Shown here: positions 14,701 through 36,828 of the stretch, in pieces
Position numbering within the stretch: the stretch's first letter is position 1
Layout of the letters: every line of letters starts with the position of its first letter
Origin: an uncultured virus (IMG/VR IMGVR_UViG_3300037455_000857)
Lineage: Duplodnaviria; Heunggongvirae; Uroviricota; Caudoviricetes
Strand: one strand, 5' to 3'
IMG/VR virus record: IMGVR_UViG_3300037455_000857
Length of the DNA stretch: 64,000 nucleotides
Translations under genes and position numbers: made by a program
The notes under the pieces: model-generated
Databases searched by the model: none
Seen by the model: the letters and a program-made list of their open reading frames with translations, nothing else
Told to the model about the DNA's origin: nothing

Positions 14701-14963
14701 TTAAGCGGTTTCCTTGTGTGCTATGACCTTTGCGATTGACTGCATTTCCGCTTGTTTGGAGTACAGCAGAGCAGTGGCGAGAAAATGTAAAAACTGGTGC
14801 AGTGACGCTTTCGCTTACACGTTCTACATTATCATACGGTCACATCAGAAGCGATTGTGTCGTTCTGTGTCATATCACCCAAGAGGTTGCCCTATTCAAT
14901 GAGATACGCCGCATTATTAGACAGTGCGGCAACAGAGTTCAATTTGGTTGAGGCAACCAAAAC

Positions 14964-15036
14964 AGTCCTATCGACAAGTGGTCGAAGTCACCACACTCTC
15001 AATGTGGAGTCACGGGTTCGAATCCCGTTGGGACTA
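14964..15036 (+). tRNA. tRNA-Glu(CTC)
   Basis: Cloverleaf; anticodon arm CCACA-CTCTCAA-TGTGG. Confidence 0.9.
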
Positions 15037-15056
15037 CAAATTCAAAATCCTTTATT

Positions 15057-15242
15057 ATGTGCGCAACGAAAGAATGCTTCGATAACGAAGCACTTATCAG
15101 AAAAATGGAAGCGAATTCGTTTTATCCGAAATGGTTTCCGAATGTGTTTCTGTTTTTCGACCCCGATGTGGCGGAAAAGATAACGGAAGCAGGCAGAACC
15201 GAAATGAAAAAACTCATAGAGTTGTTCAATATTAAAAAATAG
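15057..15242 (+). CDS. Small hypothetical protein between tRNAs
   Basis: 61 aa ATG ORF exactly filling the gap between two tRNA-Glu genes. Confidence 0.55.
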   Translation: MCATKECFDNEALIRKMEANSFYPKWFPNVFLFFDPDVAEKITEAGRTEMKKLIELFNIKK

Positions 15243-15313
15243 CCCTATCGACAAGTGGTTTAAGTCACCACTCTTTCAAGGTGGAGTCACGGGTTCGAAT
15301 CCCGTTGGGGCTA
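15241..15313 (+). tRNA. tRNA-Glu(TTC)
   Basis: Anticodon arm CCACT-CTTTCAA-GGTGG. Confidence 0.9.
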
Positions 15314-15564
15314 CACTTCCCTCTTGGTGACGGTACTTCACACCAACCAATGATAAGAGGTTTCCGATTGTGTACCATAACACAGTCCCCGTATGGGATT
15401 TTGGGTTAAGAATTCCCCCGTATGTGGTTTTGGGAGAAGAACCGCCCCTGCTGTGTATATGGGTAGATACACACGGCTCTTTTTCAACGGGTTTTTCGAG
15501 TTCGTTATGGAGAAAATGTCGCTGCGGTGAAGTCGTTGGCGTATAACAAAAACCTTTTTTACTT

Positions 15565-15638
15565 GGGCCAGTAGTTCAGTTGGTAGAACGCCTGCCTTGC
15601 AAGCAGGATGTCGTGGGTTCGATTCCCATCTGTGTCCA
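15565..15638 (+). tRNA. tRNA-Ala(TGC), one-base bulge in acceptor stem
   Basis: CCTGC-CTTGCAA-GCAGG; G3:U70. Confidence 0.85.
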
Positions 15639-15718
15639 CAAAGGTGTTTACTGCAAACATTAAATTCGAAAATAAATCTGTTTCATTGTTATTCGTTGCT
15701 CCGCACCTTGTTAAACAT

Positions 15719-15793
15719 AGTCCTATAGTTCAACGGATAGAACGGGGGTTTCCTAAACCTCTGATGCAAGTTCGATTCTTGTTAGGACTACCA
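15719..15793 (+). tRNA. tRNA-Arg(CCT)
   Basis: GGGGT-TTCCTAA-ACCTC; encoded CCA. Confidence 0.88.
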
Positions 15794-15865
15794 CGAGCAT
15801 TTATCATAATGCGAGTTTTTTGAAGTTATTCTATATTAAGTTAAAGCCCGCTTTCGCGGGCAAAC

Positions 15866-15938
15866 GGGGGTGTAGTTCAGTCGGTAGAACGGCGGACTGT
15901 TAATCCGTAAGTCGCAGGTTCGAGTCCTGCCGCCCCCG
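15866..15938 (+). tRNA. tRNA-Asn(GTT)
   Basis: GCGGA-CTGTTAA-TCCGT. Confidence 0.92.
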
Positions 15939-16093
15939 CAGCAAAACCGAGGTTGTGGTTCAATCAGATAGAATGAAAGTTCTGTTAGATTGTGTCCGTG
16001 TTCGAATGGCAATGCCGTTGGTGACGGTAGGCACGGCTTAATATGAGGATGAGGGTTTGCGGCTAACCACCGCAGATGTGTAGGTTTTGTTCA

Positions 16094-16166
16094 CTTCCCG
16101 TAGTTCAATGGATTAGAACGTGAGTCTACGGAACTCAAGATTGGGGTTCGAGTCCCTGCGGGAAGA
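16094..16166 (+). tRNA. tRNA-Arg(ACG)
   Basis: TGAGT-CTACGGA-ACTCA. Confidence 0.9.
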
Positions 16167-16191
16167 CAACCGAGTCCGCAAAGGAAAACTT

Positions 16192-16260
16192 AAAGGTGCA
16201 TACAGCAATCTTAACAGCATCAAACTTTTAATTTGACATCCGCTAACAAAGCACCTTGTT
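16192..16260 (+). ncRNA. ACAGCAA-module RNA carrying a Lys(TTT)-like anticodon hairpin (one of 6 free-standing copies)
   Basis: AAGGTGC/GCACCTT closing stem, ACAGCAA, TCAAA-CTTTTAA-TTTGA. Other copies at ~15640, 16299, 16752, 17687 and 18495. Confidence 0.6.
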
Positions 16261-16393
16261 TATTTTGACCATTCTTGGTTTCATAATTGTATAGGTGTAA
16301 AGATACGAACAGCAATCTCCAACAGAGCATAATAAGGAAGTATGACACGTTATTGTATCTTGTTTCTTTTTTTTTTTGGTGTACCATCCACCT

Positions 16394-16467
16394 GGTCCCA
16401 TAGCACAGTTGGTTAGTGCAATTGACTCATAATCAAAAGGTCGGGGGTTCAAGTCCCTCTGGGACCA
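16394..16467 (+). tRNA. tRNA-CAT (Ile2 or Met)
   Basis: TTGA-CTCATAA-TCAA; GGTCCCA acceptor stem. Confidence 0.88.
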
Positions 16468-16548
16468 CTTTCTCAAATTCATCTCTAAATATACAAATCT
16501 TTGTATTTTTCATTCTTTCACTTGTGCGGGGTTAAGCCCTGCACACAC

Positions 16549-16750
16549 GGCTGAATAGCATAATCGGAAATGCGTCAGAAGCGCAAGATGTGAACCGCAG
16601 TGATGCGGTGCTTGCCACTTTCGGGTGTGTGAGGTATAATTTCCGAAAAACGCGGGCTTTAGTTCAATTCACGGTTGTCAGTCAACTGTCTGCGTGAAGT
16701 AGGCTCTTGTTGCCGAGGAGATTCGGGGGTTCGATTCCCCTTGTCAGCCG
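16549..16750 (+). ncRNA. tRNA-like gene with a ~130 nt insert in the anticodon region
   Basis: 5' GGCTGAATAGCATAATCGGAAATGC and 3' GGGGGTTCGATTCCCCTTGTCAGCCG ends pair. Confidence 0.55.
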
Positions 16751-16833
16751 CAAAGATACACACAGCAATTTCAAAAAGCATCAAACTCGTAATTTGAATT
16801 CCGCTAAACAATGTATCTTGTTTTTCCTTATAA

Positions 16834-16952
16834 TGGGGGATGGTGTAATGGTAACACACGTATTTCATTCGGTTCTTGACAAAGAACCACGCAGCAACTT
16901 TACGAATTGCTTTTGGGTTGCCGTGATGTGGGTTCGAATCCTGCTCCCCCAA
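16834..16952 (+). ncRNA. tRNA body with the anticodon arm replaced by a permuted ACAGCAA module
   Basis: TGGGGGA/TCCCCCA acceptor, D and T arms intact; insert contains GGTTCTTG-AC-AAAGAACC-ACGCAGCAA. Confidence 0.65.
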
Positions 16953-16960
16953 CAAAGAAT

Positions 16961-17032
16961 GGAGCATTAGGCTTAATGGTAAACTGACGGACTGTCTATC
17001 CGATGTTACGGGTTCGAATCCCGTATGTTCCG
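16961..17032 (+). tRNA. tRNA-Asp(GTC)
   Basis: CGGA-CTGTCTA-TCCG. Confidence 0.85.
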
Positions 17033-17224
17033 CAAACAGAGTGAAGTTAATGGCGTAGGTTGTCTGCGGGTCGCGAACTGCATTCAATTGAAACCGACCT
17101 ATCCTTTGTCAGTATCATTAGTGGAGAAGTTGCGGTGGGATTCCGCAATGGAGAATGGTCAAAACGCTGGGAATATGCCAGAGACTACGGGTTCGAATCC
17201 CGTATGATACGCAAATCCTTATGG

Positions 17225-17646
17225 AACAGCGATTGGAGGTAGGCTTGAGAGTAGCCATCCTTTAAAGAGTTGCGAGAGGTAGCGACTATATACGAGTGTA
17301 CATCGTTGATTTGCGGGGTCGCAAGATACATTACGGCAGAGAATTTGGGTCGCCGTAAGTCCCCTCACGGAGTCATAAGCACAAATACCCGATGTCCGAT
17401 TTTCAGTCTGAAATGACGAAGTTTCCTTCGGACGTGACGGATTATTTAGGTGTCGGAGGCAGGTATGACGGATAAGGTGCAATAGTACAAGAGGAAACTG
17501 CACTTAACCTTCAATCATTTAATGATACGGTGTCCGAGGTATGAAGAAAGCCGAGGCGCAGTGTGTAATTCCCAAGTTAGTCACACGTTGGGATGTCCGT
17601 GAAACCGCCGTTGGAGCATTTGGTGTAAAAACACACAATCGCTGTT
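17225..17646 (+). ncRNA. Structured RNA resembling the 23S rRNA uL11-binding domain (H43-H44), split by a ~350 nt insert
   Basis: Perfect 11 bp closing stem AACAGCGATTG/CAATCGCTGTT enclosing GAGGTAGGCTTGAGAGTAGCCATCCTTTAAAGAG ... GTGTAAAAACACAC. Confidence 0.65.
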
Positions 17647-17751
17647 TTTTGCAGAATATTGTTAGTCATAGGCATAATGAAAAAATAAAGATGTGTACAG
17701 CAACTTTACCAAATCAAACTGTAACTTTGACCCAAGTGCATCTTGTAAAAT

Positions 17752-17822
17752 TGGGCTATGGTGTAATGGTAGCACAACAGATTTTGGTTCTGTTGGTCAA
17801 GGTTCGAATCCTTGTAGCCCAA
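17752..17822 (+). tRNA. tRNA-Gln(TTG)
   Basis: ACAGA-TTTTGGT-TCTGT. Confidence 0.9.
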
Positions 17823-17856
17823 CTGTGGCACACACAAAAAGACATAACACAACAAT

Positions 17857-17927
17857 AGGGATATGGTGTAACGGTAGCACAACAGATTTTGGTTCTGTTG
17901 GTCAAGGTTCGAATCCTTGTATCCCCG
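17857..17927 (+). tRNA. tRNA-Gln(TTG), second copy
   Basis: Same anticodon and T arms as the 17752 copy, different acceptor stem. Confidence 0.88.
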
Positions 17928-17940
17928 CAGAACAAACGAT

Positions 17941-18011
17941 AGGGATATCGTCCAATGGCAAGACACGGGACTCTGACTCCCATAATCAAGGTTCGAATCC
18001 TTGTATCCCCA
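17941..18011 (+). tRNA. tRNA-Gln(CTG)
   Basis: GGGA-CTCTGAC-TCCC. Confidence 0.88.
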
Positions 18012-18344
18012 CGATTAGGTGGTTGCAGACCAAAGTCCAAGTCCGCATACTTGCATTGAAGCCGAACAAGGTCAACAAGGTTAGTATAATAAAGACATCG
18101 GCGCGTTGGGACGAACCCGCAGAGGTGTCACACTGACACGCCCGTCACAAGCGGAGAGAGCCGAGGGGGGTACTCGGATGCGGTTAAGTCGCCGACAATG
18201 GAATTTGCGTGATGGATTTAGCGATTTGTCGTACAAGGTCAATAATGAACCAGATATGGAACATTATTGAGAAATCGGTTCACCGCAGCAGTGAAAGGGA
18301 GTTGGCGGATTGCAATAACGCCGATTTGCTGCATTTTTTTACAC

Positions 18345-18417
18345 GGGGAGATAGCAAAGCAGGTCTATGCGGCGGACTGAAAATCCGAAGATGGTGGTTC
18401 GACTCCACCTCTCCCCA
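18345..18417 (+). tRNA. tRNA-Phe(GAA)
   Basis: CGGA-CTGAAAA-TCCG. Confidence 0.88.
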
Positions 18418-18746
18418 CGGGCAGATGGATAGTAGCGTGTCCTAATGCAATTGGAGGCGCAAAAGCGGGTTCGAATCCCGTATGTCCACAAATTAAAGGT
18501 GTTGACGGCAATCCTTACAAAACTCAAATTTATCGTTTGATTGAAAGTACACCTTGTTTCCTATAAGGACAGCCGAAGGGTGAACGGCAACGGTGGGGTC
18601 GCTACCCAACGTGATTGCAATGGCACGGAGAACTTAAATGCCGTGAATCTCTTGCCCACGGGTAATTCTTCGCAGATGCGGATGCGCGTGTCCGTTTTCC
18701 TGCTGTCCTTTTTTTTACTGAATACTAACAATTAAAACATACAACA

Positions 18747-19250
18747 ATGATTTTCGAAACACTTGACAAACACATCGCGGACGCTATGTTTGAAGAAAAG
18801 AACAGTTCCGCGAAGTTGAAGACGAACTTTTGGAAAGGCGTTAAGACCGAAATGGTGAACGCAATCCATAACGGGGTGAAACTTCCGAATGACGAGGAAG
18901 AAACGAAGATTCTCCGTTCAATGCTGAAGAGATGCCGCACTGCTGCGCAGGAGTTTGCCAAGGCTGGTGACGATAACCAAGTCGCTGTCGAAAACAGAAA
19001 GGTAAACGAGTTCGAGGCTGCTGAACTTGAAAAACTCCTGCCGAAAGAGCCTACCGTTGAGGAAGTCTATAACGAGACGGTCAAGCAGGTCGATATGTTC
19101 GTTGCCGAGAAAATCGGCGAGGACGAAAATTTCAGCGTCAAACAACTCCAACGCTTCACAAAGGACATCATCACGAGGGTTAAGGAGAAATATCCAAACG
19201 CCAACAACGGTGTCATTGCGAATGTCGTGAAAGAAATCGCCAACAAGTAG
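18747..19250 (+). CDS. YqeY/GatB-domain protein
   Basis: Helical 167 aa ORF with DKHIADAM, DEEETKILRSMLKRCRTAAQEFAKAG and ELEKLLPKEPTVEE patterns typical of YqeY; lies inside the tRNA array. Confidence 0.75.
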   Translation: MIFETLDKHIADAMFEEKNSSAKLKTNFWKGVKTEMVNAIHNGVKLPNDEEETKILRSMLKRCRTAAQEFAKAGDDNQVAVENRKVNEFEAAELEKLLPKEPTVEEVYNETVKQVDMFVAEKIGEDENFSVKQLQRFTKDIITRVKEKYPNANNGVIANVVKEIANK

Positions 19251-19261
19251 TTGGCGCAGTC

Positions 19262-19346
19262 GGGGGAGCGGCTACGATGGTGGAGTGGCGGCAGACTGTA
19301 AATCTGTTACAAGGAAACGCAGGGGGTTCGAATCCCTCCTCCCCCA
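19262..19346 (+). tRNA. tRNA-Tyr(GTA)
   Basis: GCAGA-CTGTAAA-TCTGT; long variable region. Confidence 0.88.
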
Positions 19347-19452
19347 CGTGAAAGGGTGTAGTGTTATTACGGTTTCGTCATAATGCACCAACCAACCTTG
19401 AGGAGCGTGCGCACAAAAATCCTTGCAAGGAGGACAAAATGAAACCGACTAT

Positions 19453-19574
19453 GCGGAGATAGTTTAATGGTAGAACGCGATATGCACTAATGGTTCTTGT
19501 AAAAGAATCTGACAGCGACTTTATTGCTCGATATTCCAAATCCGTGATGCGTGGTTCGAATCCCGCTCTCCGCT
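19453..19574 (+). ncRNA. Second tRNA body with a permuted ACAGC(G)A module in place of the anticodon arm
   Basis: GCGGAGA/TCTCCGC acceptor; insert contains GGTTCTTG-TA-AAAGAATC-TG-ACAGCGA. Confidence 0.65.
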
Positions 19575-19614
19575 CAAAGCCATAGGCTTGGCTTCGGTTG
19601 CGCGACCGAAGTCT

Positions 19615-19688
19615 TGGAACGTAGTGCAACGGTAGCACAACCCCGTCAGAAACGGGGTAAATGTCAGTTCGAATCCGACCGTTTCCAA
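19615..19688 (+). tRNA. Atypical tRNA (extended anticodon stem, identity undetermined)
   Basis: ACCCCGT-CAGAA-ACGGGGT arm, bulged acceptor stem, mismatch in the T stem. Confidence 0.5.
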
Positions 19689-19698
19689 CAAACAACAG

Positions 19699-19770
19699 TG
19701 CGGGATGGAGCAGTGGTGGCTCGCAAGGCTCATAACCTTGAGGTCGGGGGTTCGAGTCCCTCTCCCGCTA
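19699..19770 (+). tRNA. tRNA-Met(CAT), initiator-like
   Basis: CAAGG-CTCATAA-CCTTG; 1:72 mismatch. Confidence 0.9.
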
Positions 19771-19949
19771 CAATAGTGAAGAAGTGTTCGGAGAAGATTT
19801 GTGCGCCGTTTATGCCCGCTGCAAAAGGGGGCGATGCTTCCGTTGGCGCATCGGGCTTCACCGCCCGTTTTGCGGGTTCAATTATTTTTCGACAACCCGC
19901 CGTATCATTCAAAGAATTCGGCATCATTATGCCGACTTCACTATACCTT

Positions 19950-20021
19950 GCGGGCGTAGCACAACGGTTAGTGTCGGAGATTTCCAATCTTCTGATGTGG
20001 GTTCGATTCCCATCGCCCGCT
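19950..20021 (+). tRNA. tRNA-Gly(TCC)
   Basis: GGAGA-TTTCCAA-TCTTC. Confidence 0.9.
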
Positions 20022-20119
20022 CACCGACCTGGCAAGGTTGTTTGGACGCGGCATCATCGCTGCGTTCTTACAGAAGTGTTGGTTTTCTGTATATTCCCTT
20101 CAGTAAGAACAGAATTTTT

Positions 20120-20203
20120 GGGTGAGTGGCGGAACTGGTAGACGCGCAAGTTTGAGGGACTTGTCCCCGAATGGGGGTGTGGGTTCGAATCCCATCTCGC
20201 CCA
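20120..20203 (+). tRNA. tRNA-Leu(GAG)
   Basis: CAAGT-TTGAGGG-ACTTG; variable arm. Confidence 0.92.
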
Positions 20204-20334
20204 CCCGAAAATCAGACGGACACATTCGCTTATATCGGAGGATATTAAGCCCGCTATGGAGCAGGCGGGCGCGTTAAGTTTATTCGTGGGTATATAGGAT
20301 GGCGAGGCTTCATAAGCATATGTCAGTCTGTTAC

Positions 20335-20418
20335 GGGCAGGTGGCGGAATTGGTAGACGCGGCAGTTTCAGAGGCTGCTGCCCGCAAGGGCGTGAGGGTT
20401 CGAGTCCCTCTCTGCCCA
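20335..20418 (+). tRNA. tRNA-Leu(CAG)
   Basis: GCAGT-TTCAGAG-GCTGC. Confidence 0.92.
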
Positions 20419-20442
20419 CAGCCGAATGCCTATTTCCAATTC

Positions 20443-20522
20443 GGGCGAGTGGCGGAATTGGTAGACGCGGTAGTTTTAGGAACTACTGCTTCGGCGTGCG
20501 GGTTCGAGTCCCGTCTTGCCCA
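20443..20522 (+). tRNA. tRNA-Leu(TAG)
   Basis: GTAGT-TTTAGGA-ACTAC. Confidence 0.92.
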
Positions 20523-20532
20523 CAAGTCATTC

Positions 20533-20616
20533 GGGCGAGTGGCGGAATTGGTAGACGCGACAGACTTAAAATTTGTTGCCCGTAAGGGCGTGCGGGTTCG
20601 ATTCCCGCCTCGCCTA
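20533..20616 (+). tRNA. tRNA-Leu(TAA)
   Basis: ACAGA-CTTAAAA-TTTGT. Confidence 0.92.
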
Positions 20617-20637
20617 CCTAACAAATGTACAAACGAT

Positions 20638-20814
20638 ATGAGTGCGAATTTAAGTGAAATACTGAAAGAAAAAATATCGTCTATGAGCGATTCGGATATA
20701 AACCGAATTATGGACGAAATACAGAAAGTTTCAAAGGACATCGCTTCGCCGTCAGCGGACGAATACACGAAGTTCTTGGAACGGATGAAGAAATATGCGG
20801 AAACGCAAAGTTAA
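20638..20814 (+). CDS. Small hypothetical protein (MSANLSEILKEK...)
   Basis: 58 aa helical ORF from the ATG at 20638, downstream of tRNA-Leu. Confidence 0.6.
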   Translation: MSANLSEILKEKISSMSDSDINRIMDEIQKVSKDIASPSADEYTKFLERMKKYAETQS

Positions 20815-20940
20815 ATCGGCAAACCCAAAACGAGGGGGTGTGGGTAATAGGTCTCGTCCCGTTGCTCGTTAGCGCGGGTAGAGCGGTAAAGGCTGAAAGG
20901 TCTCGCTATCAAGATTAAATAACTACTGCTGATTTTTTAA

Positions 20941-21024
20941 GGTCGAGTGGCGGAATTGGTAGACGCGCTTGTCTCAAAAACAAGTGTCCGAAAGGACGTG
21001 CGGGTTCGATTCCCGCCTCGACCA
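20941..21024 (+). tRNA. tRNA-Leu(CAA)
   Basis: CTTGT-CTCAAAA-ACAAG. Confidence 0.92.
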
Positions 21025-21191
21025 CACAGAAAGCGGCTGCATACCGTTATTAAGTTGGCGTTTTGTGTTCATATACGGCAAACGTGCAGGTTTGTTTTGT
21101 GTGAGCGTACTCGAAAAAATCCGTTTAGTTTAATTGGGAAAACCCCCGCGTGGGCGGGTATTGTGCGGTTCGAATCCCTCAATGGAACAAT

Positions 21192-21262
21192 GTCTGCGTG
21201 TCCGAGTGGTTAGGAGGCGGTCTGCAAAACCGTCAACGGTGGTTCAAGTCCTCCCGCAGACT
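21192..21262 (+). tRNA. tRNA-Cys(GCA)
   Basis: GCGGT-CTGCAAA-ACCGT; U73. Confidence 0.88.
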
Positions 21263-21272
21263 CATACAACAA

Positions 21273-21347
21273 GGGGTTGTAACTCAATGGCTTTAGAGTA
21301 CTACACTTTTAATGTAGGAGTTGTGGGTTCGAGTCCCACCAGCCCCA
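21273..21347 (+). tRNA. tRNA-Lys(TTT)
   Basis: CTACA-CTTTTAA-TGTAG. Confidence 0.92.
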
Positions 21348-21369
21348 CAAAAACCAAAAAATAACCGTT

Positions 21370-21525
21370 ATGTGGATAGTGATATTGTTTCTGTTTTTAG
21401 TTTTTGCGATAATAATCCTTGCTGTCGGTATAATCTGCGCTATGTTGGGTGAAGCCAACAAGCCGTTGGACGACTACAAAAGGGATGATTGTATAGGGGA
21501 ATTTGACGATTTGAACGGGATATAG
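21370..21525 (+). CDS. Small single-pass membrane protein (51 aa, not in ORF track)
   Basis: MWIVILFLFLVFAIIILAVGIICAMLG followed by an acidic tail. Confidence 0.6.
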   Translation: MWIVILFLFLVFAIIILAVGIICAMLGEANKPLDDYKRDDCIGEFDDLNGI

Positions 21526-21701
21526 GACAAACAGCCAAGCGAGTTTGTGAGCCGAACATAACCACGACAAAATGGTGTCGGTACGGGAAAACGGCTGGAA
21601 TATTGTACTCATCGGGTTGGTACGCTTTAGTCCGCTGAAGATAAGTGGCGGGTCTCGGTGCATCCAAGTGACTAACAGAATTCTTGGATTGGCTGTTTAT
21701 T

Positions 21702-21773
21702 GGGTTGGTAGCAAAATGGTACTGCACTTGACTCTTAATCAAGGGACTGTGGGTTCGAATCCCACCCAACCCA
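21702..21773 (+). tRNA. tRNA-Lys(CTT)
   Basis: CTTGA-CTCTTAA-TCAAG. Confidence 0.9.
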
Positions 21774-21994
21774 CAAAAAACAAGCATCGTTGTTCGGGCA
21801 GAAACGTAAAACGCATCCCGCAAGCAGTCGCTCCGTGGCTTGTAAAAAATGGAATCGGATAAGCGGGAGGTGATATCACCCGTTACAAACTATACTTTTT
21901 GAGCCGACAGAGCAGGCGGGGAAAGTTTTTGAAAGGTTAAGATAAAACTGCCCGAAATAGCAAAATAGCACGGTTGCTTGTCTGTGCCAAAAAC

Positions 21995-22068
21995 TGGCGT
22001 GTAGTTCAATGGATTAGAATAATTGACTTCTAATCAATAGGTTGCGGGTTCGAGTCCCGCCTCGCCAA
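21995..22068 (+). tRNA. tRNA-Arg(TCT)
   Basis: ATTGA-CTTCTAA-TCAAT. Confidence 0.9.
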
Positions 22069-22489
22069 CAAGGTGTAAATCCATCCCTTTACCCGCACCC
22101 GAAGACGCATATCTTCCACAGTATAAAGAAGGGGCAGGGGTCGTTCCGTTGGAGAGCAGCGGATATAGGTTAAAACGGTGAAATGTCAATTCCGCAAGGT
22201 GCGCGGTACACACAGTAGTCGGACAGTGACAAAGAGTATGGTCGGGTATAAAATCGCCGTTGCAGGGATTGCGCAGTCTCTGCAATGTGAAATGGTAACG
22301 GGCGCGGGTGCATCCGCGAACCGCGAGAGGCGCGAATCCGAGACACATCTACTGTCACCTTGCCATAAAGACGTAGGGGGAGGCAACCCCAATTTTCTAT
22401 CATCTATCTTCTACCACATCCGCCTCCCCCGAACTTTAAAAACAAAGGGTTGAAATTTTTATTATATAAATAAAAAGACATTGACAAAT

Positions 22490-22561
22490 GCCAGCGTAGC
22501 ACAATGGCAGTGCAACTGATTTGTAATCAGTAGGTTGTGGGTTCGACTCCCTCCGCTGGCT
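22490..22561 (+). tRNA. tRNA-Thr(TGT)
   Basis: ACTGA-TTTGTAA-TCAGT. Confidence 0.9.
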
Positions 22562-22579
22562 CAAATTAAATCCTCATCT

Positions 22580-22855
22580 ATGACAGAACACGAGATTGAG
22601 TGCAGGAGAGCGATGTACGCTCACGAGCATAATATCCCCGAAATTGAACTCGTTCCAATCCCAAAAAAGGATTTGGTTGTCGGCAAGACATACGGCGGTG
22701 AGTGCAGGAATGCGGACACAGCCGTTTGGAACGGAAAGGTATTCACCTATAAAAGATACAAGTTCGGAGATGTGTTTGATGAAGATATAAACCATTTCGA
22801 GGACGATGACGGATATGATGTTTTCGTTCCGTTTGAGGTAATCGAAAGGGATTGA
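22580..22855 (+). CDS. Hypothetical protein
   Basis: 91 aa from the ATG at 22580 (MTEHEIEC...), fills the gap between tRNAs. Confidence 0.7.
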   Translation: MTEHEIECRRAMYAHEHNIPEIELVPIPKKDLVVGKTYGGECRNADTAVWNGKVFTYKRYKFGDVFDEDINHFEDDDGYDVFVPFEVIERD

Positions 22856-22857
22856 AT

Positions 22858-22930
22858 GCGGGCATAGCACAATTGGTAGTGTGCGACCTTGCCAAGGTCG
22901 AGGTTGCGGGTTCGAGTCCCGTTGCCCGCT
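22858..22930 (+). tRNA. tRNA-Gly(GCC)
   Basis: CGACC-TTGCCAA-GGTCG. Confidence 0.93.
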
Positions 22931-23009
22931 CAACAAGGCATAAAACGTGCGTCCATTGTCTGACTATGGAAAGGTTTATCCTCCGAGCAATTGGCAACCA
23001 CGTTCAATT

Positions 23010-23082
23010 CGGGTAGTGGCGCAGTTGGTAGCGCACTGCATTTGGGATGCAGGGGTCGAAGGTTCGAGTCCTTTCTACCCGA
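23010..23082 (+). tRNA. tRNA-Pro(TGG)
   Basis: CTGCA-TTTGGGA-TGCAG. Confidence 0.93.
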
Positions 23083-23115
23083 CAAAATTAAGTATAACCA
23101 AAAAATCAAAACCTT

Positions 23116-23976
23116 ATGAAAATAGGATTGTTCATCCAATCGTCAAACCAAGAGTTGTTTGTCAAGAACACCGAGGTTTTGATGAATCATTACAGAAAAG
23201 TTATCGAGCATTTCGGTCTTGATGTCGATGTCCGTTATTACACGAGCCACGATAATCCGCAGGAGAATATGATGCTTTTGAAAAAGGATTCAATCAGAGT
23301 TCCCTGCGATGACGGCAATGTGACGGAAAAGGCTTACATCCTGCTTTGGGCGTTGGTGAACAAACTTCCGAAATATGACATCATAATAAAAACGAATAAC
23401 TGCACGGTGCTGAACCTCAAACAGATTTGTGAATTCTGCGAATCGGATGTTTACGACAGAGACAAGGTTTACTGCTCTATGATAAACAAAGCACCGAATA
23501 TGACGGTTAACAACTACAACCATTGGATTGCCACAAAGCCGTTTGTTAATTACCCAAACGGAAATTTCGTTATGTTTTCATACGACAAACTCAAACTTCT
23601 TTATGCTCATTATAAAGACGTGTCGAACTATATGTCGAGTTGTTATCCGAAAAGGGAGAAAGAGGACTTTGACGGCAAGTTGTGGTACGGCATAGCGGAG
23701 GATATTGTGTTTGGTCGGATATTCAATTATTTCGGCATACACATAGAGGTTATCGGGGAGTTCATCAGAATGTACGATACGGGTCATTTCAAATCTAATA
23801 TGGATTATATGACAACACCGTTGGATGTATTCGGTGTGTATTGCAAAATGGGTTCTGACTATGATATTCGGAAACAGTATGAAACCCCTTTCATAGACCT
23901 TGTTACGAAATGTTATGAGGGTTTGTTCAACTACGACAGACGTGAACTCGTGGTTACAAAAACCACGGAAAAATGA
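23116..23976 (+). CDS. Putative glycosyltransferase (GT-A fold, GT31-like)
   Basis: YDIIIKTN, GNFVMFS and EDIVFG motifs; family assigned by eye. Confidence 0.55.
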   Translation: MKIGLFIQSSNQELFVKNTEVLMNHYRKVIEHFGLDVDVRYYTSHDNPQENMMLLKKDSIRVPCDDGNVTEKAYILLWALVNKLPKYDIIIKTNNCTVLNLKQICEFCESDVYDRDKVYCSMINKAPNMTVNNYNHWIATKPFVNYPNGNFVMFSYDKLKLLYAHYKDVSNYMSSCYPKREKEDFDGKLWYGIAEDIVFGRIFNYFGIHIEVIGEFIRMYDTGHFKSNMDYMTTPLDVFGVYCKMGSDYDIRKQYETPFIDLVTKCYEGLFNYDRRELVVTKTTEK

Positions 23977-24118
23977 AAATAAGAAAAAACGGGCGTGAGG
24001 CTGCTTAAACGGGATGGAATCTGGCTGCCCTTTGCGGCAGGAGCGGCGTGCTTGGGGTTTTATCAAAATTTTACCCTTTCATCGAAAGGTGAAGTTCGAA
24101 TCAGCGTGCGTCCACAAT

Positions 24119-24338
24119 ATCTGTGCGGGATTTTTTCTCGTATGAGAAAACTTCTGCAATTTTACTAAAATGGTTTTATTGAGTTCGATTCTCAAACTTT
24201 CCTGCACAGATTTTTTATTGAATTTCCTATTATCCTATATCCGTGCGGGCTGCTTCATTACGGGGAAGCATCTTTCTTGAACAAGAAAGACCTCTGCATA
24301 ACAACGGAATTAGTTCGACTCTAATAGCCCGTGCGGAT
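24119..24338 (+). ncRNA. Two tandem tRNA-like structured RNAs with long terminal stems
   Basis: 24119-24211 and 24239-24338: 12-13 bp closing stems, a shared CTGCA, and a TTCGA T-arm just before the 3' strand. Confidence 0.5.
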
Positions 24339-24373
24339 TTTTTTATTGACAATATATGTGTTATATATAATAT

Positions 24374-24447
24374 GGCGGAGATAGTTCAGTTGGTAGAACG
24401 GCAGATTGTGGTTCTGTTAGTCGTGGGTTCGAGTCCCACTCTTCGCC
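24374..24447 (+). tRNA. tRNA-His(GTG)
   Basis: GCAGA-TTGTGGT-TCTGT; G-1:C73. Confidence 0.9.
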
Positions 24448-24461
24448 CAAACCTATCATAG

Positions 24462-24535
24462 GTCGATGTAGCGGAGTTGGCTTCTTGCGCCTCTCTCATA
24501 AGGAGGAGACGGTGGTTCGAACCCACCCATCGGCA
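24462..24535 (+). tRNA. tRNA-Met(CAT), elongator-like
   Basis: CCTCT-CTCATAA-GGAGG. Confidence 0.85.
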
Positions 24536-24545
24536 CAGAATATTT

Positions 24546-24620
24546 GCGAGGTTAGTTCAGTTGGGTCAGAACACCTGCCCTACAAGCAGGGAGTCGGGGG
24601 TTCAAATCCCTCACCTCGCA
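24546..24620 (+). tRNA. tRNA-Val(TAC)
   Basis: CCTGC-CCTACAA-GCAGG (C33 instead of U33). Confidence 0.88.
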
Positions 24621-24941
24621 CAACTGTTATGTGAAGGGGAATTGGTATACCCTCGCTTGAAGCCGCTGTCGTGGGCGGTTATATAGTGGTCTTGGGAGTG
24701 AGACGTAAAGGTCGCCCGTTGGACACGATATTCCAACGGTACTGCGGGTTCGAGTCCCGTCATTTCAGCAATCGTCAGCCAAAGATGGCGGTTTCGGTTT
24801 TGCAGTGACACAGTAAGGAACTGCACGATGCGCGTAACGGTGACGCTATGCGTCCGTATCGTAAAATGCTCGGCAAGGGTGGCAAGAAGCCGAGCAGGGC
24901 TGCACGCACTTTGGAAAGCGTGTTGTAAGACCGTTTTACAC

Positions 24942-25032
24942 GGAGGAGTACCCAAGAGGCTGAAGGGGACGGTTTGCTAAACCGTTAGGTCGGCGAAGAG
25001 TCGGCGCGGGGGTTCGAATCCCTCCTCCTCCG
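24942..25032 (+). tRNA. tRNA-Ser(GCT)
   Basis: ACGGT-TTGCTAA-ACCGT; long variable arm. Confidence 0.92.
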
Positions 25033-25047
25033 CTAAATACAACTATT

Positions 25048-25353
25048 ATGGATAATATCGAAAATATAAATCATTGCTGTGGAGGAAATCTGCTTCAATT
25101 CACCATCATCGCTGATGGATGGAAACTAACTTCAAGAAGCGTTAAATCCGACACTTTTCTGAATAAGGAACAAGTCGAAAAGCAATGCAAAAGCATTGCC
25201 GAGTCTGTTGTGAAGAAATTTAGCGGAAGAAACTTCAAGTATGTTCTTGTTAGACTGACGTTGAGTTATTATGATTCACACTCCATTATGAAATGGGAAG
25301 ACTTCGTTGGCAATGCTGACAAATGTGTTTCCGATATTGTGAACAAACTATAA
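25048..25353 (+). CDS. Hypothetical protein
   Basis: 101 aa ATG ORF. Confidence 0.65.
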   Translation: MDNIENINHCCGGNLLQFTIIADGWKLTSRSVKSDTFLNKEQVEKQCKSIAESVVKKFSGRNFKYVLVRLTLSYYDSHSIMKWEDFVGNADKCVSDIVNKL

Positions 25354-25698
25354 CGCATTTCGTATTTTCGGTTGCGATAACTTCGCGTGATTAGCCGCCG
25401 CATAAATCGCCGTGAAACTCGGAGGTGGGCTGCACCAAACGCTATTGATTTAGCAGTTCGGATATCGTGTCGGGTAACAACGCCACGGAATCAGCAGTAC
25501 ATAGTTTAAAAGACGGACAAAACCGTGAATGATAAAACATCGGCGGGTGTGATTTGTGTTTCCTGCGGGTTAGCCCGTGACAAAACGGGATTTTGGTGTT
25601 GTATTCTATGCACTTGGTGTCCCTGGAAAATGGCGAGGGGGCGGTTCGATTCCGTAAGTTCCGCAGCATCAATCTTGCAAGAATCCCGTTTTTTACAT

Positions 25699-25769
25699 AG
25701 GAGTGTAGTTCAATGGTAGAATGTCGGTCTCCAAAACCGAGGATGGAGGTTCGAATCCTTCCGCTCCTG
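25699..25769 (+). tRNA. tRNA-Trp(CCA)
   Basis: TCGGT-CTCCAAA-ACCGA. Confidence 0.92.
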
Positions 25770-25805
25770 CAACAGAAATTTCAATTTTTTATTATATGTG
25801 TATAT

Positions 25806-25895
25806 GGAGGGGTGGCAGAGTTGGTTTATTGCGGCGGTCTTGAAAACCGTTGGGGCTAACAACCCCCGTGGGTTCGAATCCCACCCCCTCCGCCA
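25806..25895 (+). tRNA. tRNA-Ser(TGA)
   Basis: GCGGT-CTTGAAA-ACCGT; encoded CCA. Confidence 0.92.
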
Positions 25896-25912
25896 ACTTA
25901 AACTTACGAATT

Positions 25913-26185
25913 ATGACGCAGGATGAAATAAAAGAATTTATACAAGAGTTCGGGTACGAATCCGTGACCTTGTTCGAGAACCCTTCATACGACACGGCTT
26001 GCATAGGCATATCCGAGGATGAAAGGGCTGTTTACGACTACGACCTAATGGTCAAGCATCTCGTTGACAAAGACGGTATGACAGAGGAGGAAGCGGAAGA
26101 GTTCATCGAGTACAACACCATACGGGCAATCCCGTATTTCCCGAATCCGCCGATTGTGGTGAGACCTTTCCCAAAAATGGAGTAG
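25913..26185 (+). CDS. Hypothetical phage protein
   Basis: From the ATG at 25913 (MTQDEIKEF...YDTACIG...EEAEEFIEYN). Confidence 0.75.
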   Translation: MTQDEIKEFIQEFGYESVTLFENPSYDTACIGISEDERAVYDYDLMVKHLVDKDGMTEEEAEEFIEYNTIRAIPYFPNPPIVVRPFPKME

Positions 26186-26186
26186 T

Positions 26187-26495
26187 ATGATACAGATGGA
26201 TTTCAACAAATGCTATGTCTTGAAAAAAGACAACCCTTATTTCTGCATACAGTTGCAGAAGCGTGTTTCGTTTCCAGACGGGATTGTGGTTAGGACAAGG
26301 CATAGGACGGCATTCCCGATTTCGGGGAATAACAATGACGGCGTTCTTTGGTTTGGCACGATTGTTGATACATCGGGTGGTTGTGATTACGACACGGACA
26401 ATGAAATCGAGTTCTGTGCGGAAGACGTTGAGCGTGAATATGAATTTAGGGAAAATTCTCAACTTATGTGGTTTCATCTTCCATCGGGCTGTTGA
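26187..26495 (+). CDS. Hypothetical protein
   Basis: 102 aa, coupled to the upstream ORF. Confidence 0.65.
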   Translation: MIQMDFNKCYVLKKDNPYFCIQLQKRVSFPDGIVVRTRHRTAFPISGNNNDGVLWFGTIVDTSGGCDYDTDNEIEFCAEDVEREYEFRENSQLMWFHLPSGC

Positions 26496-26557
26496 TAACT
26501 TTGTTGATAACTTTTTTGCGGAAATGTGAGTTGTGTATAAAATTTTTTGTATTTTTG
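26490..26557 (+). promoter_or_regulatory. Paired TGTTGATAA boxes + Bacteroidota-type -7 element TATTTTTG
   Basis: Boxes at 26490 and 26502, TAnnTTTG at 26550. Same layout at 27961-28027 and 37762-37828. Confidence 0.65.
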
Positions 26558-26576
26558 CTGCGTTAAAATAAATGAT

Positions 26577-27011
26577 ATGAAAGACAGAAGATACGTCATA
26601 TTGAGAAAAGACACGGTTAGCGGTGAAATCTGCGGCTATTGCGAACACTCGTTCTCTATGGATTTCCATACAGACCGTGTTAAGGTTTACGGATGTGTTA
26701 CGAAATTGGGGGAGTATCGGTCTGAAGAAAACTACAGATACTATCTTGACAACCAAAAGAATTACAAGGGTATCCGTAACGCGAAGTCGCCGAACCAAAA
26801 ACTTTGGTATGAACTGCGAATGACTGTCAACCAAATGAACAACAGCAAAAAAGCGAAACAGTACGAATACAAGTTGTTCAGACTTGGAAAGAACTGCCCC
26901 GTTGAGGTTGACTTCACGGAGTACAATATGATGAAATCTCACAAAATGAAATACGACAAATACCTTTGGAGGAATCAGCCAATCAAGGCTGTTTACCCAG
27001 AGAAATGGTAG
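26577..27011 (+). CDS. Hypothetical protein
   Basis: From the ATG at 26577 (MKDRRYV...), downstream of the promoter. Confidence 0.7.
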   Translation: MKDRRYVILRKDTVSGEICGYCEHSFSMDFHTDRVKVYGCVTKLGEYRSEENYRYYLDNQKNYKGIRNAKSPNQKLWYELRMTVNQMNNSKKAKQYEYKLFRLGKNCPVEVDFTEYNMMKSHKMKYDKYLWRNQPIKAVYPEKW

Positions 27012-27024
27012 TTCTTTGAAATAA

Positions 27025-27264
27025 CGGGCGTGTGGTTAGAACCTTTTGGCTTGTGTACACGAGCCGAATGCGGCACTTGGTGCAGCGGGGCTTTCCCGAA
27101 AGTCATTATTCGGGATAACGCAAGATGCATTTGAAGATTCCAAATAGAATGTATTGAACGTTATGACGACAAGAGGAGACTGCGTGCAATAAATGGAAAT
27201 AAAGACGCAGTAAGACGTAAGTTTAATCCCGTTTTTAGGGAGTGTTCAAATCCTCCCCGCCCGA
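27025..27264 (+). ncRNA. tRNA-like ends enclosing a ~170 nt structured insert
   Basis: CGGGCG/CGCCCG ends, GTTCAAATC T-loop, boxA-like GTTCTTTGAA at 27011. Confidence 0.45.
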
Positions 27265-27272
27265 CTAATTAT

Positions 27273-27347
27273 CGGTAGGTATATCAGTTTGGTCAGATAG
27301 CGTGTCTGATAAACACGAGGTCGCAGGTTCAAATCCTGCCCTACCGA
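27273..27347 (+). tRNA. tRNA-Ile(GAT)
   Basis: CGTGT-CTGATAA-ACACG. Confidence 0.9.
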
Positions 27348-27363
27348 CACAAACACGAATTCT

Positions 27364-35837: not shown

Positions 35838-35979
35838 ATATTCACAATATATTCTATCTTTCTTGTAATGTTATCCCGCATTGCTTTCATCATATTGTTT
35901 TGTTTTGTGTTTTTGCGATTTTTTTATTATATTATACAAGAAAGTGCTTAATATTTATAAGGACAAAAAAATCAATTTT

Positions 35980-36828
35980 ATGGAATATCAAATAGGTCAA
36001 GAAATTACGATTAATGCACGGCACAATATCAAGGTCGCCGTGTGCGAACACAGAAACTGTGACGGCTGTTTTTTCATCTACAAATGCAAAACGGACAACC
36101 GTGAGGATGTCAAGAACACATACGGTGAATGCTCGTGTTTGGAGCGCAAGGACGGCAAGAATATCATATTCCTGCCCGTTTCGGACAACGGTATGAAGTT
36201 CGACACGGGCAAGAGCGTGGTGAACGTTCCGCTGTTCTGCCAAGAAACGGATGTCTATAACGCCAACGAGAAAATTTGGTTCACGTCAGACCTGCACTTT
36301 TTCCACGACAGAGAGTTCATTTGGAAGGCTCGCGGGTTCAATAGCGTTGATGAAATGAACGCCGAAATCGAGAAAAGGTGGAACGAAATAGTAGGGAAGG
36401 ACGACCACGTTTATGTTCTCGGAGACCTTATGCTCGGCGGTGTCAGCAACAAGGGTGTTGAAATCCTCGGTCGGCTGAACGGCAATCTCCACATTGTAAT
36501 CGGCAATCACGACACCGATAACAGACTGCTGCTGTATAAGAACCTCTCCAATGTCCGCAGCGTGACATACGCAGCCAAAGTTAAATACGGCGGCTATAAA
36601 TTCTTCCTCACGCATTTCCCCTGCATCACGGGTAACATTGAGAAAGAAACTTTGAAGCAGACTACCATCAACCTCTCTGGTCACACCCACGAAAGAAGCA
36701 AGTTTTTCTATGACTTGCCATTTGTCTATAATGTTTCCGTTGATGCCCACGACTGCAAGCCCGTTGGCATTGAAGAGATAATCAGCGATATGAATAACAA
36801 GGTCGAGGAATGCAAAAGCGTTTTGTGA
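35980..36828 (+). CDS. Calcineurin-like metallophosphoesterase with N-terminal Cys-containing extension
   Basis: FTSDLHFFH, VLGDL, GNHD, THFP and GHTH motifs; TTTTTATTATATTA upstream. Confidence 0.88.
   Translation: MEYQIGQEITINARHNIKVAVCEHRNCDGCFFIYKCKTDNREDVKNTYGECSCLERKDGKNIIFLPVSDNGMKFDTGKSVVNVPLFCQETDVYNANEKIWFTSDLHFFHDREFIWKARGFNSVDEMNAEIEKRWNEIVGKDDHVYVLGDLMLGGVSNKGVEILGRLNGNLHIVIGNHDTDNRLLLYKNLSNVRSVTYAAKVKYGGYKFFLTHFPCITGNIEKETLKQTTINLSGHTHERSKFFYDLPFVYNVSVDAHDCKPVGIEEIISDMNNKVEECKSVL

Follow-up and report, generated by a model that had tools for sequence, protein, structure and literature searches.

Six short elements lie within the transfer RNA (tRNA) gene array of a 64,000-nucleotide (nt) stretch of giant-phage DNA from IMG/VR record IMGVR_UViG_3300037455_000857, an uncultured virus of the Caudoviricetes. 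This whole stretch is called the window below. We consider it probable that the six elements are small non-coding RNA genes of an uncatalogued, Y-RNA-like family, whose products would be partners of a Ro60-like protein acting together with RNA-repair enzymes. The same RNA was found in other giant phages and, outside tRNA arrays, directly upstream of a protein gene in gut and rumen bacteria. The product of that gene is predicted to have the fold of Ro60.

Ro60 and Y RNAs form a conserved RNA-surveillance system, and Ro60 is a human autoantigen. To our knowledge, only the TROVE-annotated branch of Ro60 has been mapped in bacteria so far. Our finding points to a second, very large Ro60-like branch with a candidate partner RNA that is listed in no RNA database. 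It also suggests a possible function for an orphan protein that is abundant in gut and rumen Clostridia and in giant phages.

The six elements belong to one structured RNA family

Each element is 60–72 nt long, with its core counted from AAAG to CTTGT, and all six lie on the plus strand (Table 1). A leading A is followed by a 7-nt arm AAGRTRY (R = A or G; Y = C or T), two free bases, the motif ACNGCAA, a variable interior of 30–45 nt, a second arm RYAYCTT and a final GT. A preliminary description of this DNA, made from the letters alone, had reported six such elements with a shared 5′ motif and a complementary 3′ end, and all of them were present where it had placed them.

The 5′ motif (AAAGRTRYNNACNGCAA) occurred without a mismatch only at these six sites of the window. 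When up to two mismatches were permitted, 26 matches were found against 3.4 ± 1.9 expected. Beyond the six, 19 of these lay in a coding repeat (598–2774) and one lay at 16584. The near-matches in the coding repeat arise from the collagen-repeat DNA of a giant open reading frame (ORF) at 37–7464. The 3′ motif RYAYCTTGTW (W = A or T) matched 17 times against 2.0 expected (eight-fold), and 6 of these form the closing ends of the six elements. A covariance model of the family scored the six elements at 44.5–67.9 bits on the 64 kb, with the next best match at 15.7 bits and an expectation value (E) of 0.23.

The preliminary description had also noted compensatory changes between the two ends, and these were borne out in a larger sample. 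In 40 copies selected by a sequence pattern, all 7 pairs of the terminal helix were formed in 40 of 40. This count is free of model-fitting bias, and the A·C mismatches that the pattern allowed at three pairs never occurred. In 64 distinct copies found by the covariance model, 99.8% of the helix cells are paired and double-sided changes are seen at 6 of the 7 pairs, in an alignment that was fitted to the model and hence leans towards the structure. New pairs of arms appeared among these copies, for example AAGACAC/GTGTCTT and AAGGCAC/GTGCCTT. Thirteen helix cells in the 64 copies are G·U and would give A·C mismatches on the other strand. Since these cells pair solely on the tRNA strand, they point to RNA and not to double-stranded DNA.

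The folding energies of the single sequences were ordinary in comparison with shuffled sequences (z from −2.65 to 0.00, with only one of the six elements below −2). The support for the structure is therefore comparative and not energetic. RNAalifold, applied to 22 bacterial copies, returned the terminal helix alone because MAFFT does not align the inner hairpins; for this reason the hairpins were counted sequence by sequence against shuffles (see below). Taken together, these results confirm that the six elements are real and that they are members of one covarying RNA family.

A function at the level of DNA was weighed against the same data. The elements might be recombination sites folded from single-stranded DNA, like the attC sites of integrons, or mobile elements with inverted ends that shuffle tRNA cassettes. 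Their 7-base-pair (bp) inverted terminal repeats flank a variable centre, an array holds several copies, and related phages have rearranged tRNA sets, all of which fits. However, the arms covary, which the ends of mobile elements need not do, the 13 G·U cells pair on the tRNA strand only, and the orientation to the tRNAs and to the downstream protein gene of bacteria is strict. Anticodon-like loops and the ACNGCAA motif would be left unexplained, and no integrase or transposase gene tracks the family; the TnpB-like gene of the window (31171–32022) is 12 kb away. We therefore regard a DNA-level role as very improbable.

A Bacteroidetes-type promoter in a TTTG-containing stem, noticed by eye, was rejected as a separate candidate. 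The spacing was right in only one of the four copies, and covariation with the 5′ arm is not expected of a promoter.

Copies in tRNA arrays of other phages

With a two-part sequence pattern, 41 loci were found in IMG/VR; by a rough estimate from the information content of the pattern, about one match was expected by chance. A covariance model, as the preliminary description had proposed, was then searched over whole IMG/VR records. It found copies in 5 of 5 records (20 matches) and in 30 of 30 records (66 matches), 35 of 35 in all. These records were chosen in advance for a pattern match, and the counts show copy number and divergence, not prevalence. One of the records, G001 (413 kb, rated complete), is a close relative of the window phage, with the same order of tRNAs and six copies at matching places.

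Every tRNA called by ARAGORN at the loci of the 64 distinct copies shares the strand of the element, and none is on the opposite strand. The distance to a tRNA end was within 10 nt for 26 of the 64 copies and within 100 nt for 40. For example, element 1 begins 2 nt past a tRNA-Ala gene and ends 7 nt ahead of a tRNA-Arg gene, and element 5 ends 5 nt ahead of a tRNA-Gln gene. Other neighbours, missed by ARAGORN, are tRNA-like 3′ ends, such as those immediately ahead of the elements at 16752 and 18495.

A bacterial locus with a protein gene and a repair gene

A pattern scan of bacterial species genomes gave at least 120 loci, mostly in gut and rumen Clostridia with some in Treponema. The hosts include Oscillospiraceae, Ruminococcus, Saccharofermentans and Acutalibacteraceae, and among the cultured isolates are Oscillibacter and a Lachnospiraceae strain. 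The helix was fully paired in 108 of 124 bacterial matches among the matches listed, and the remainder look like chance matches within genes.

The bacterial elements lie outside tRNA arrays and directly 5′ of a same-strand gene with about 490 codons. Of 53 downstream ORFs, 38 were given to Pfam and 15 were left out as apparent chance or coding matches. Among the matches listed, 35 of these 38 ORFs matched DUF2828 with or without DUF7788, two matched RtcB and one had no match. In order to escape our own selection of ORFs, a profile of the protein was run over all 80 loci with full flanks among the matches listed. It matched in 55, always on the strand of the RNA and downstream of it in 54. The rate depended on the helix: 54 of 70 listed loci with a perfect helix were matched, versus 1 of 10 with an imperfect one. 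Only the Pfam result is independent, because the profile was built from the proteins of the same loci.

An RtcB gene lay directly 3′ of the DUF2828 gene in three of five genomes, as seen from overlapping loci. In a fourth genome this arrangement follows by coordinates only, and the fifth gave no RtcB match. Upstream, a divergent gene encoded a WYL domain in 7 of 37 cases at E ≤ 1e-5, with two more at weaker E, among the matches listed. An alternative upstream gene on the same strand, of about 303 codons, gave weak matches to WCX, the C-terminal domain of WYL proteins, in 4 of 4 cases, all below the curated cut-off. Examples are found at 531–1439 of locus L103 and at 336–1244 of locus L129, with no Pfam match above threshold. 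From these weak matches, this gene may encode a second type of WYL-family regulator of the operon.

The DUF2828+DUF7788 protein is predicted to resemble Ro60

The DUF2828+DUF7788 protein had no match to TROVE in Pfam at E ≤ 10, no sequence match in PDB at E ≤ 10 and no match in NCBIfam. Its C-terminal part gave weak matches to VWA_2 in Pfam. An AlphaFold model built from 31 sequences had a mean predicted local distance difference test score (pLDDT) of 83 and a predicted template modelling score (pTM) of 0.74. In a structure search with this model, the best 13 PDB matches were all Ro60/TROVE structures, over about 500–580 alignment columns and with E from 6e-9 to 5e-6. The top matches were frog and human Ro60, Deinococcus Rsr and the Ro60 of Thermus phage phiLo; isolated vWA domains ranked next. 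As judged from the predicted structure, DUF2828+DUF7788 is a Ro60-like protein in which a vWA domain joins a TROVE-fold ring, and its link to TROVE is not picked up by sequence comparison.

The protein family is large, with at least 7962 clusters at E ≤ 1e-10 among the 8000 scored, and every one of these is unnamed or called 'hypothetical protein'. The literature searched held nothing on this RNA or on DUF2828 as a relative of Ro60; a 2016 genomics survey of RNA repair and a 2020 review of bacterial Ro60 were outside the coverage of that search.

The protein and RNA-repair genes in phages

The Ro60-like protein is encoded in 17 of the 35 RNA-bearing phage records, and in 6 of the 7 with a completeness of 90% or more. 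In at least nine records (G003, G012, G016, G021, G024, G025, G026, G027 and G034) its gene directly follows one to three copies of the RNA. RtcB was found in 3 of the 35 RNA-bearing records, and a Pfam scan of 57 ORFs found no RtcB gene in the 64-kb window. Since RtcB is rare in these phages, the phage versions would be independent of it. An ATP-type RNA ligase (PF09414) was present in 11 of the 23 phage records searched and in 5 of the 7 near-complete ones.

In G001, the neighbours of the protein gene encode a calcineurin-like phosphoesterase, NUMOD1, an RNA ligase (PF09414) and an ABC-type ATPase, and a weak match resembling 2H phosphoesterases lies further upstream. By their family assignments, these genes are a putative RNA end-healing and sealing set. 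The co-occurrence with TROVE/Ro60 or RtcB genes that the preliminary description had suggested looking for was thus found in a modified form: the RNA is coupled to a gene for a Ro60-like protein, with RtcB or other RNA-repair genes beside it.

The variable interior and its resemblance to tRNA

Four of the elements enclose the same 5-bp stem, TCAAA/TTTGA, with a 7-nt loop, as had been noted before. In element 2 the stem (16220–16224 with 16232–16236) carries the loop CTTTTAA (16225–16231; Lys-UUU-type), in element 4 (16781–16785 with 16793–16797) CTCGTAA (16786–16792; Thr-CGU-type), in element 5 (17714–17718 with 17726–17730) CTGTAAC (17719–17725; Tyr-GUA-type) and in element 6 (18524–18528 with 18536–18540) TTTATCG (18529–18535). 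The loop of element 2 is identical to that of the tRNA-Lys(TTT) gene of the window at 21273, with a different stem (CTACA/TGTAG in the tRNA). Because the same loop sits on a different stem, the module of element 2 is no copy of the tRNA-Lys arm.

The earlier proposal that these hairpins are mimics of anticodon arms is supported for part of the set. Three of the six elements (16192, 16752 and 17687) have the 5-bp stem together with a 7-nt loop that has U33 and a purine at position 37. The element at 18495 has C37, and in two elements such a hairpin is absent. Only three of the six loops are good look-alikes of anticodon loops, because TTTATCG has C in place of R37 and is not conserved in a relative, where the counterpart differs. 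Element 1 has no 7-nt anticodon-like loop; it and its two counterparts in related phage records have another loop sequence in common, and an interior CTGTTTC stretch is kept in all three. Element 3 showed no anticodon-like hairpin in the per-sequence count.

For the whole family, we defined an anticodon-like hairpin as a stem of at least 4 bp with a 7-nt loop of the form Y-U-NNN-R-N, and used composition-preserving shuffles for comparison. Such loops were present in 21 of 64 phage copies, versus 2.9 ± 1.6 in 500 shuffles (maximum 8), and in 37 of 106 bacterial copies among the matches listed, versus 3.6 ± 1.8 in 300 shuffles (maximum 10). The enrichment was thus about sevenfold in phages and tenfold in bacteria. 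The preliminary description had named a lack of enrichment for YU-NNN-R as one result that would speak against it, and the opposite was found.

The copies are related, and the loop counts are not independent. The recurrence of a loop on different stems is therefore a better argument than the counts. CTTTTAA, the most frequent loop in phages, occurs on six different stems. Conversely, the stem TCAAA/TTTGA carries CTTTTAA, CTCGTAA, CTGTAAC, CTGTCAC and loops that are not anticodon-like in the window, G001 and G004; at least five distinct loops are borne by it across the window and related phages. Taken as anticodons, the family's loops correspond to Lys, Thr, Tyr, Asp, Asn, Gly, Ser, Leu and Cys in phages and to Asn, Asp, Ser, Ile and others in bacteria. 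These comparisons support a constant, probably protein-binding scaffold that displays look-alikes of anticodon arms.

One explanation of such loops, raised in the preliminary description, is that the RNAs are free-standing decoys for anticodon nucleases, for example those of a host defence directed at tRNA-Lys, with no need of a Ro60-like protein. The enrichment of the loops fits this explanation, as does the prevalence of the Lys-UUU-type loop on its six stems, and the differing loops on one stem in related phages look like diversification of the displayed loop. Moreover, the window phage encodes an RNA ligase, and tRNA-Lys is a known nuclease target, that of PrrC (PMC1484252). However, the helix and ACNGCAA, which are the most conserved part of the RNA and track the Ro60-like gene, would then have no role. 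Two thirds of the copies have no anticodon-like loop, and the same RNA occurs in a bacterial repair operon, to which phage counter-defence does not apply. We regard free-standing decoys as unlikely, although baiting nucleases could be a job of the variable module within the Ro60-like reading and the two explanations overlap there.

Further likenesses to tRNA were found outside the loop. Many bacterial copies have an extra G+C-rich hairpin against the 3′ arm, in the position of a stacked T arm, and some of these have TTCGAAT or TTCAAAT loops. A hairpin abutting the 3′ strand was seen in 50 of 106 bacterial copies among the matches listed, versus 30.6 ± 4.5 in shuffles, which is a modest excess. 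In phages it was seen in 14 of 40 copies versus 10.7 ± 2.8 and was not enriched. The copies in the window have neither a D arm nor a T arm. The distance from the 5′ arm to the first hairpin, which includes ACNGCAA, is about the length of a D arm plus its flanks, so that the RNA can be drawn as a tRNA in which the D arm is replaced by the ACNGCAA motif. It would be a tRNA mimic wired differently from the known ones and showing anticodon loops.

Could the elements be extremely reduced, 'armless' tRNAs that are active in translation? The 7-bp end helix resembles an acceptor stem, a 5-bp stem with a 7-nt Y-U-NNN-R-N loop is present in part of the family (three of the six elements), the spacing in the array is tRNA-like, and the T-arm-like hairpins of some bacterial copies add to the likeness. 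In contrast to tRNAs, the family has no D arm, and neither ARAGORN nor the Rfam tRNA model (RF00005) called any of the six elements a tRNA. The same 'acceptor' helix is kept whatever the 'anticodon', unlike tRNA identity. The array already has standard tRNA-Lys(TTT) and tRNA-Tyr(GTA) genes by ARAGORN, and the family follows the Ro60-like gene and not translation genes. A role as tRNAs in translation is, in our judgement, extremely unlikely.

Comparison with Y RNAs and other known RNAs

Rfam searches of the whole window at gathering thresholds returned tRNAs only, and the family is absent from Rfam 15. At E ≤ 5 over 14500–19300 there was no match on the strand of any element; on the opposite strand, 16305–16447 matched one snoRNA model at E 3.6, which is the chance level. 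The single YrlA match (20.8 bits, 15892–16002) was on a tRNA and off the elements. Twelve bacterial loci searched against Rfam at E ≤ 1 gave no Y RNA match and just three ordinary tRNAs.

Bacterial Y RNAs are described (PMC4201824) as encoded on the strand of the Ro60 gene and within 4 kb of it, with paired ends and GNCGAAN0-1G near the 5′ end. They mimic tRNA with T and D arms and serve as substrates of tRNA enzymes, the Ro60-binding stem replacing the anticodon stem (PMC4201824). The Ro60 of Thermus phage phiLo binds two Y RNAs encoded upstream of its gene (PMC12135203).

In comparison with these bacterial and phage Y RNAs (YrlA/YrlB and Yrn1; RF02553; the Salmonella rsr-yrlBA-rtcBA operon), the present family is alike in its paired ends, with a 5′-strand motif just inside the helix, in the tRNA-imitating remainder, in the possibility of tandem copies and in its presence in phages too. 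In bacteria it is also alike in its closeness, on the same strand, to a gene for a protein with a TROVE-fold ring and a vWA domain (here a predicted fold), with RtcB adjoining; at least nine phage records share this closeness, and the window and G001 do not. The differences are in the protein family, DUF2828+DUF7788 without a TROVE match, and in the motif, ACNGCAA instead of GNCGAAN0-1G; the Rfam models fail as well. The wiring is different from that of YrlA. Here the end helix is in the place of the acceptor stem and is combined with an anticodon-like arm, whereas in YrlA the Ro60-binding stem is in the place of the anticodon stem and the D arm and T arm remain. The neighbouring regulator is of the WYL type, in contrast to RtcR in the Salmonella operon, and the copies of giant phages lie inside tRNA arrays, far from the protein gene.

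The tRNA gene cluster of phage T4 encodes stable small RNAs of unknown function. Compared by description only, they too are non-tRNA RNAs from the tRNA cluster of a phage and presumably mature together with the tRNAs. The T4 RNAs are longer, and we know of no link between them and a Ro60-like protein. On these comparisons, we file the present family as one that would work like a Y RNA, as a new variant outside the curated families.

Hints of expression

Parts of the window stretch were found in four metatranscriptome runs. These data are contigs only, which show neither ends nor levels, and small RNAs are poorly captured in them. Exact contigs from RNA libraries of two studies covered 16178–16405, with elements 2 and 3, at a depth of 2–5. 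No exact RNA contig was listed for elements 1, 4 and 5, and element 6 was partly covered. RNA-library contigs of two studies stop at 16750/16751, just ahead of element 4, which is a weak hint of a processing site. This coverage is compatible with transcription and processing of the elements.

Higher depth was seen at three stretches of the array outside the tRNAs (15328–15542, 17232–17640 and 18030–18301), where the RNA contig depth rose to about 500, versus 0–30 in the flanks, in several studies. Rfam at E ≤ 5 gave no match on them. The array therefore does yield abundant non-tRNA RNAs, and these stretches look like abundant structured RNAs of some other kind.

How the RNAs may work

Several observations weigh against a Y-RNA-like partnership. 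The protein was lacking in 18 of the 35 RNA-bearing records; most of these are fragments, and G002, which is 93% complete, has the RNA without the protein. In G001 the protein gene is about 200 kb from the RNAs, with no copy and no tRNA near it. The 64-kb window has no Ro60-like gene (best tblastn E 0.1; Pfam scan of 57 ORFs). For this phage, therefore, the link is one of co-occurrence and not adjacency. The Rfam models of Y RNA and YrlA gave no match on the elements at E ≤ 5, and the canonical motif GNCGAAN0-1G does not occur in the family, which has the invariant ACNGCAA in its position. The relation of the protein to Ro60 comes from predicted structure only, because TROVE was not matched even at the permissive threshold. 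An anticodon-like hairpin is lacking in about two thirds of the copies, elements 1 and 3 among them, the depth of 2–5 over elements 2 and 3 could be due to DNA or to a precursor, and many bacterial elements end 10–20 nt before the start codon, which fits a cis-acting leader too. The suggestion of a Y-RNA-like ligand of Ro60/TROVE, made in the preliminary description, thus has strong comparative support in the coupling to a gene of predicted Ro60 fold and stands on that point, whereas the canonical motif, the Rfam models and the gene content of the window do not bear it out.

The leader just mentioned belongs to an alternative in which the elements act in cis, as processing spacers between tRNAs in phages and as a tRNA-mimic leader that regulates the DUF2828 gene in bacteria. 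The short distances to tRNA ends (26 of 64 copies within 10 nt), the bacterial spacing ahead of the start codon and, weakly, the contig stops before element 4 are in its favour. However, there are six elements for 35 tRNAs, and most tRNAs have none. The G001 copies, at their distance from the protein gene, cannot be a leader, and conserved loops on covarying stems are unexpected of a mere spacer. Moreover, canonical Y RNAs too are co-transcribed with the Ro60 gene and yet act in trans (PMC4201824). We consider a purely cis-acting role quite improbable.

Under the Y-RNA-like reading, which we prefer, four steps can be proposed. The RNAs would be transcribed together with the tRNA array; their co-orientation is observed and their transcription is hinted at by the contigs. 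RNase Z and RNase P would then free them by cleaving the tRNAs that abut them, as the spacings of 0–8 nt suggest. The 7-bp end helix and the adjacent single-stranded ACNGCAA would form a constant module that binds the Ro60-like protein, by analogy with the stem and the CGAA-type motif of Y RNAs. Finally, the variable interior would mimic parts of tRNA, an anticodon arm in phages with a T-arm-like hairpin added in many bacteria, and might bring the ribonucleoprotein (RNP) to proteins that read anticodon arms, either as a tether for tRNA repair or surveillance or as a bait for anticodon nucleases. The protein partner of the window phage should be encoded outside the 64 kb, as in its close relative.

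A more specific version is put forward tentatively, and we think it rather doubtful as it stands. The Ro60-like RNP might be a programmable bait or sentinel, with one scaffold and exchangeable loops (Lys, Thr, Tyr, Asp, Asn and others). The panel of a phage would then serve counter-defence by protecting or repairing the tRNA supply, and bacteria would sense and mend tRNA damage with RtcB. The family raises the testable question of whether RNPs of the Ro60 type meet anticodon nucleases or other enzymes that read anticodons. It also accounts for part of the non-tRNA 'filler' in the tRNA arrays of giant phages.

The window and its tRNA array

The window derives from a giant phage whose setting is the bovine gut or rumen. 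The same DNA was found in gut and bovine gut metagenomes. The Pfam scan of 57 ORFs identified genes for the large terminase, PhoH, an RNA ligase, a DNA methylase, a TnpB-like protein and many Fib_succ_major proteins. Among GenBank phages no close relative of the window was found, only short tRNA matches. The six elements occupy the first third of the tRNA array, on the strand of the tRNAs.

Table 1. Positions of the six elements and of related features in the window
Feature	Coordinates	Strand	Description
Element 1	15640..15711	+	Helix AAGGTGT/GCACCTT (one G·U), ACTGCAA; 44.5 bits
Element 2	16192..16259	+	Helix 16193–16199/16251–16257; ACAGCAA 16202–16208; 67.9 bits
Element 3	16299..16363	+	Helix AAGATAC/GTATCTT, ACAGCAA; 45.8 bits; T run 3′ of the element
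Element 4	16752..16821	+	Helix AAGATAC/GTATCTT, ACAGCAA; 66.5 bits
Element 5	17687..17746	+	Helix AAGATGT/GCATCTT (one G·U), ACAGCAA; 54.5 bits
Element 6	18495..18557	+	Helix AAGGTGT/ACACCTT, ACGGCAA; 52.2 bits
tRNA array, 35 tRNA genes	14964..27348	+ (all 35)	ARAGORN, Rfam
Calcineurin-like phosphoesterase gene	35881..36828	+	Pfam; the same family adjoins the Ro60-like gene in relative G001
RNA ligase gene	45137..45814	+	Pfam PF09414, E 2.6e-24; sole RNA-repair ligase seen in the window

Some stretches of the array are tRNA-like without being called as tRNAs. At 16833–16952 the Rfam tRNA model scored 41.5 bits over 119 nt, with an insert of about 45 nt in the anticodon region and no ARAGORN call. 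The insert consists of a 7-bp hairpin followed by GCAGCAAC and resembles the ends of the elements in swapped ('permuted') order. The stretches at about 16540–16750, 17113–17210 and 18420–18490 end in a canonical T arm and the 3′ strand of an acceptor stem and were called as tRNA by no tool. They may be tRNAs with long inserts or tRNA-like RNAs, and elements 4 and 6 each follow immediately on one of these stretches.

In the middle of the array, 18747–19250 (plus strand) is a small protein gene with a weak YqeY-like (GatB/YqeY) match at E 3.8e-5, below the cut-off. The giant ORF at 37–7464 (plus strand) has at least 2475 codons and consists largely of collagen triple-helix repeats (Pfam E 5.7e-195). 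The TnpB-like gene, with OrfB_IS605 and Cas12f1-like TNB domains, is on the minus strand beside the terminase region.

The arrays of related phages include a tRNA with a TTA anticodon (called 'tRNA-Stop' by ARAGORN) and tRNAs with four-base anticodons, at 3362–3432 and 3074–3166 of locus L003 and at 3048–3126 of locus L013. These tRNAs hint at recoding in some of the phages.

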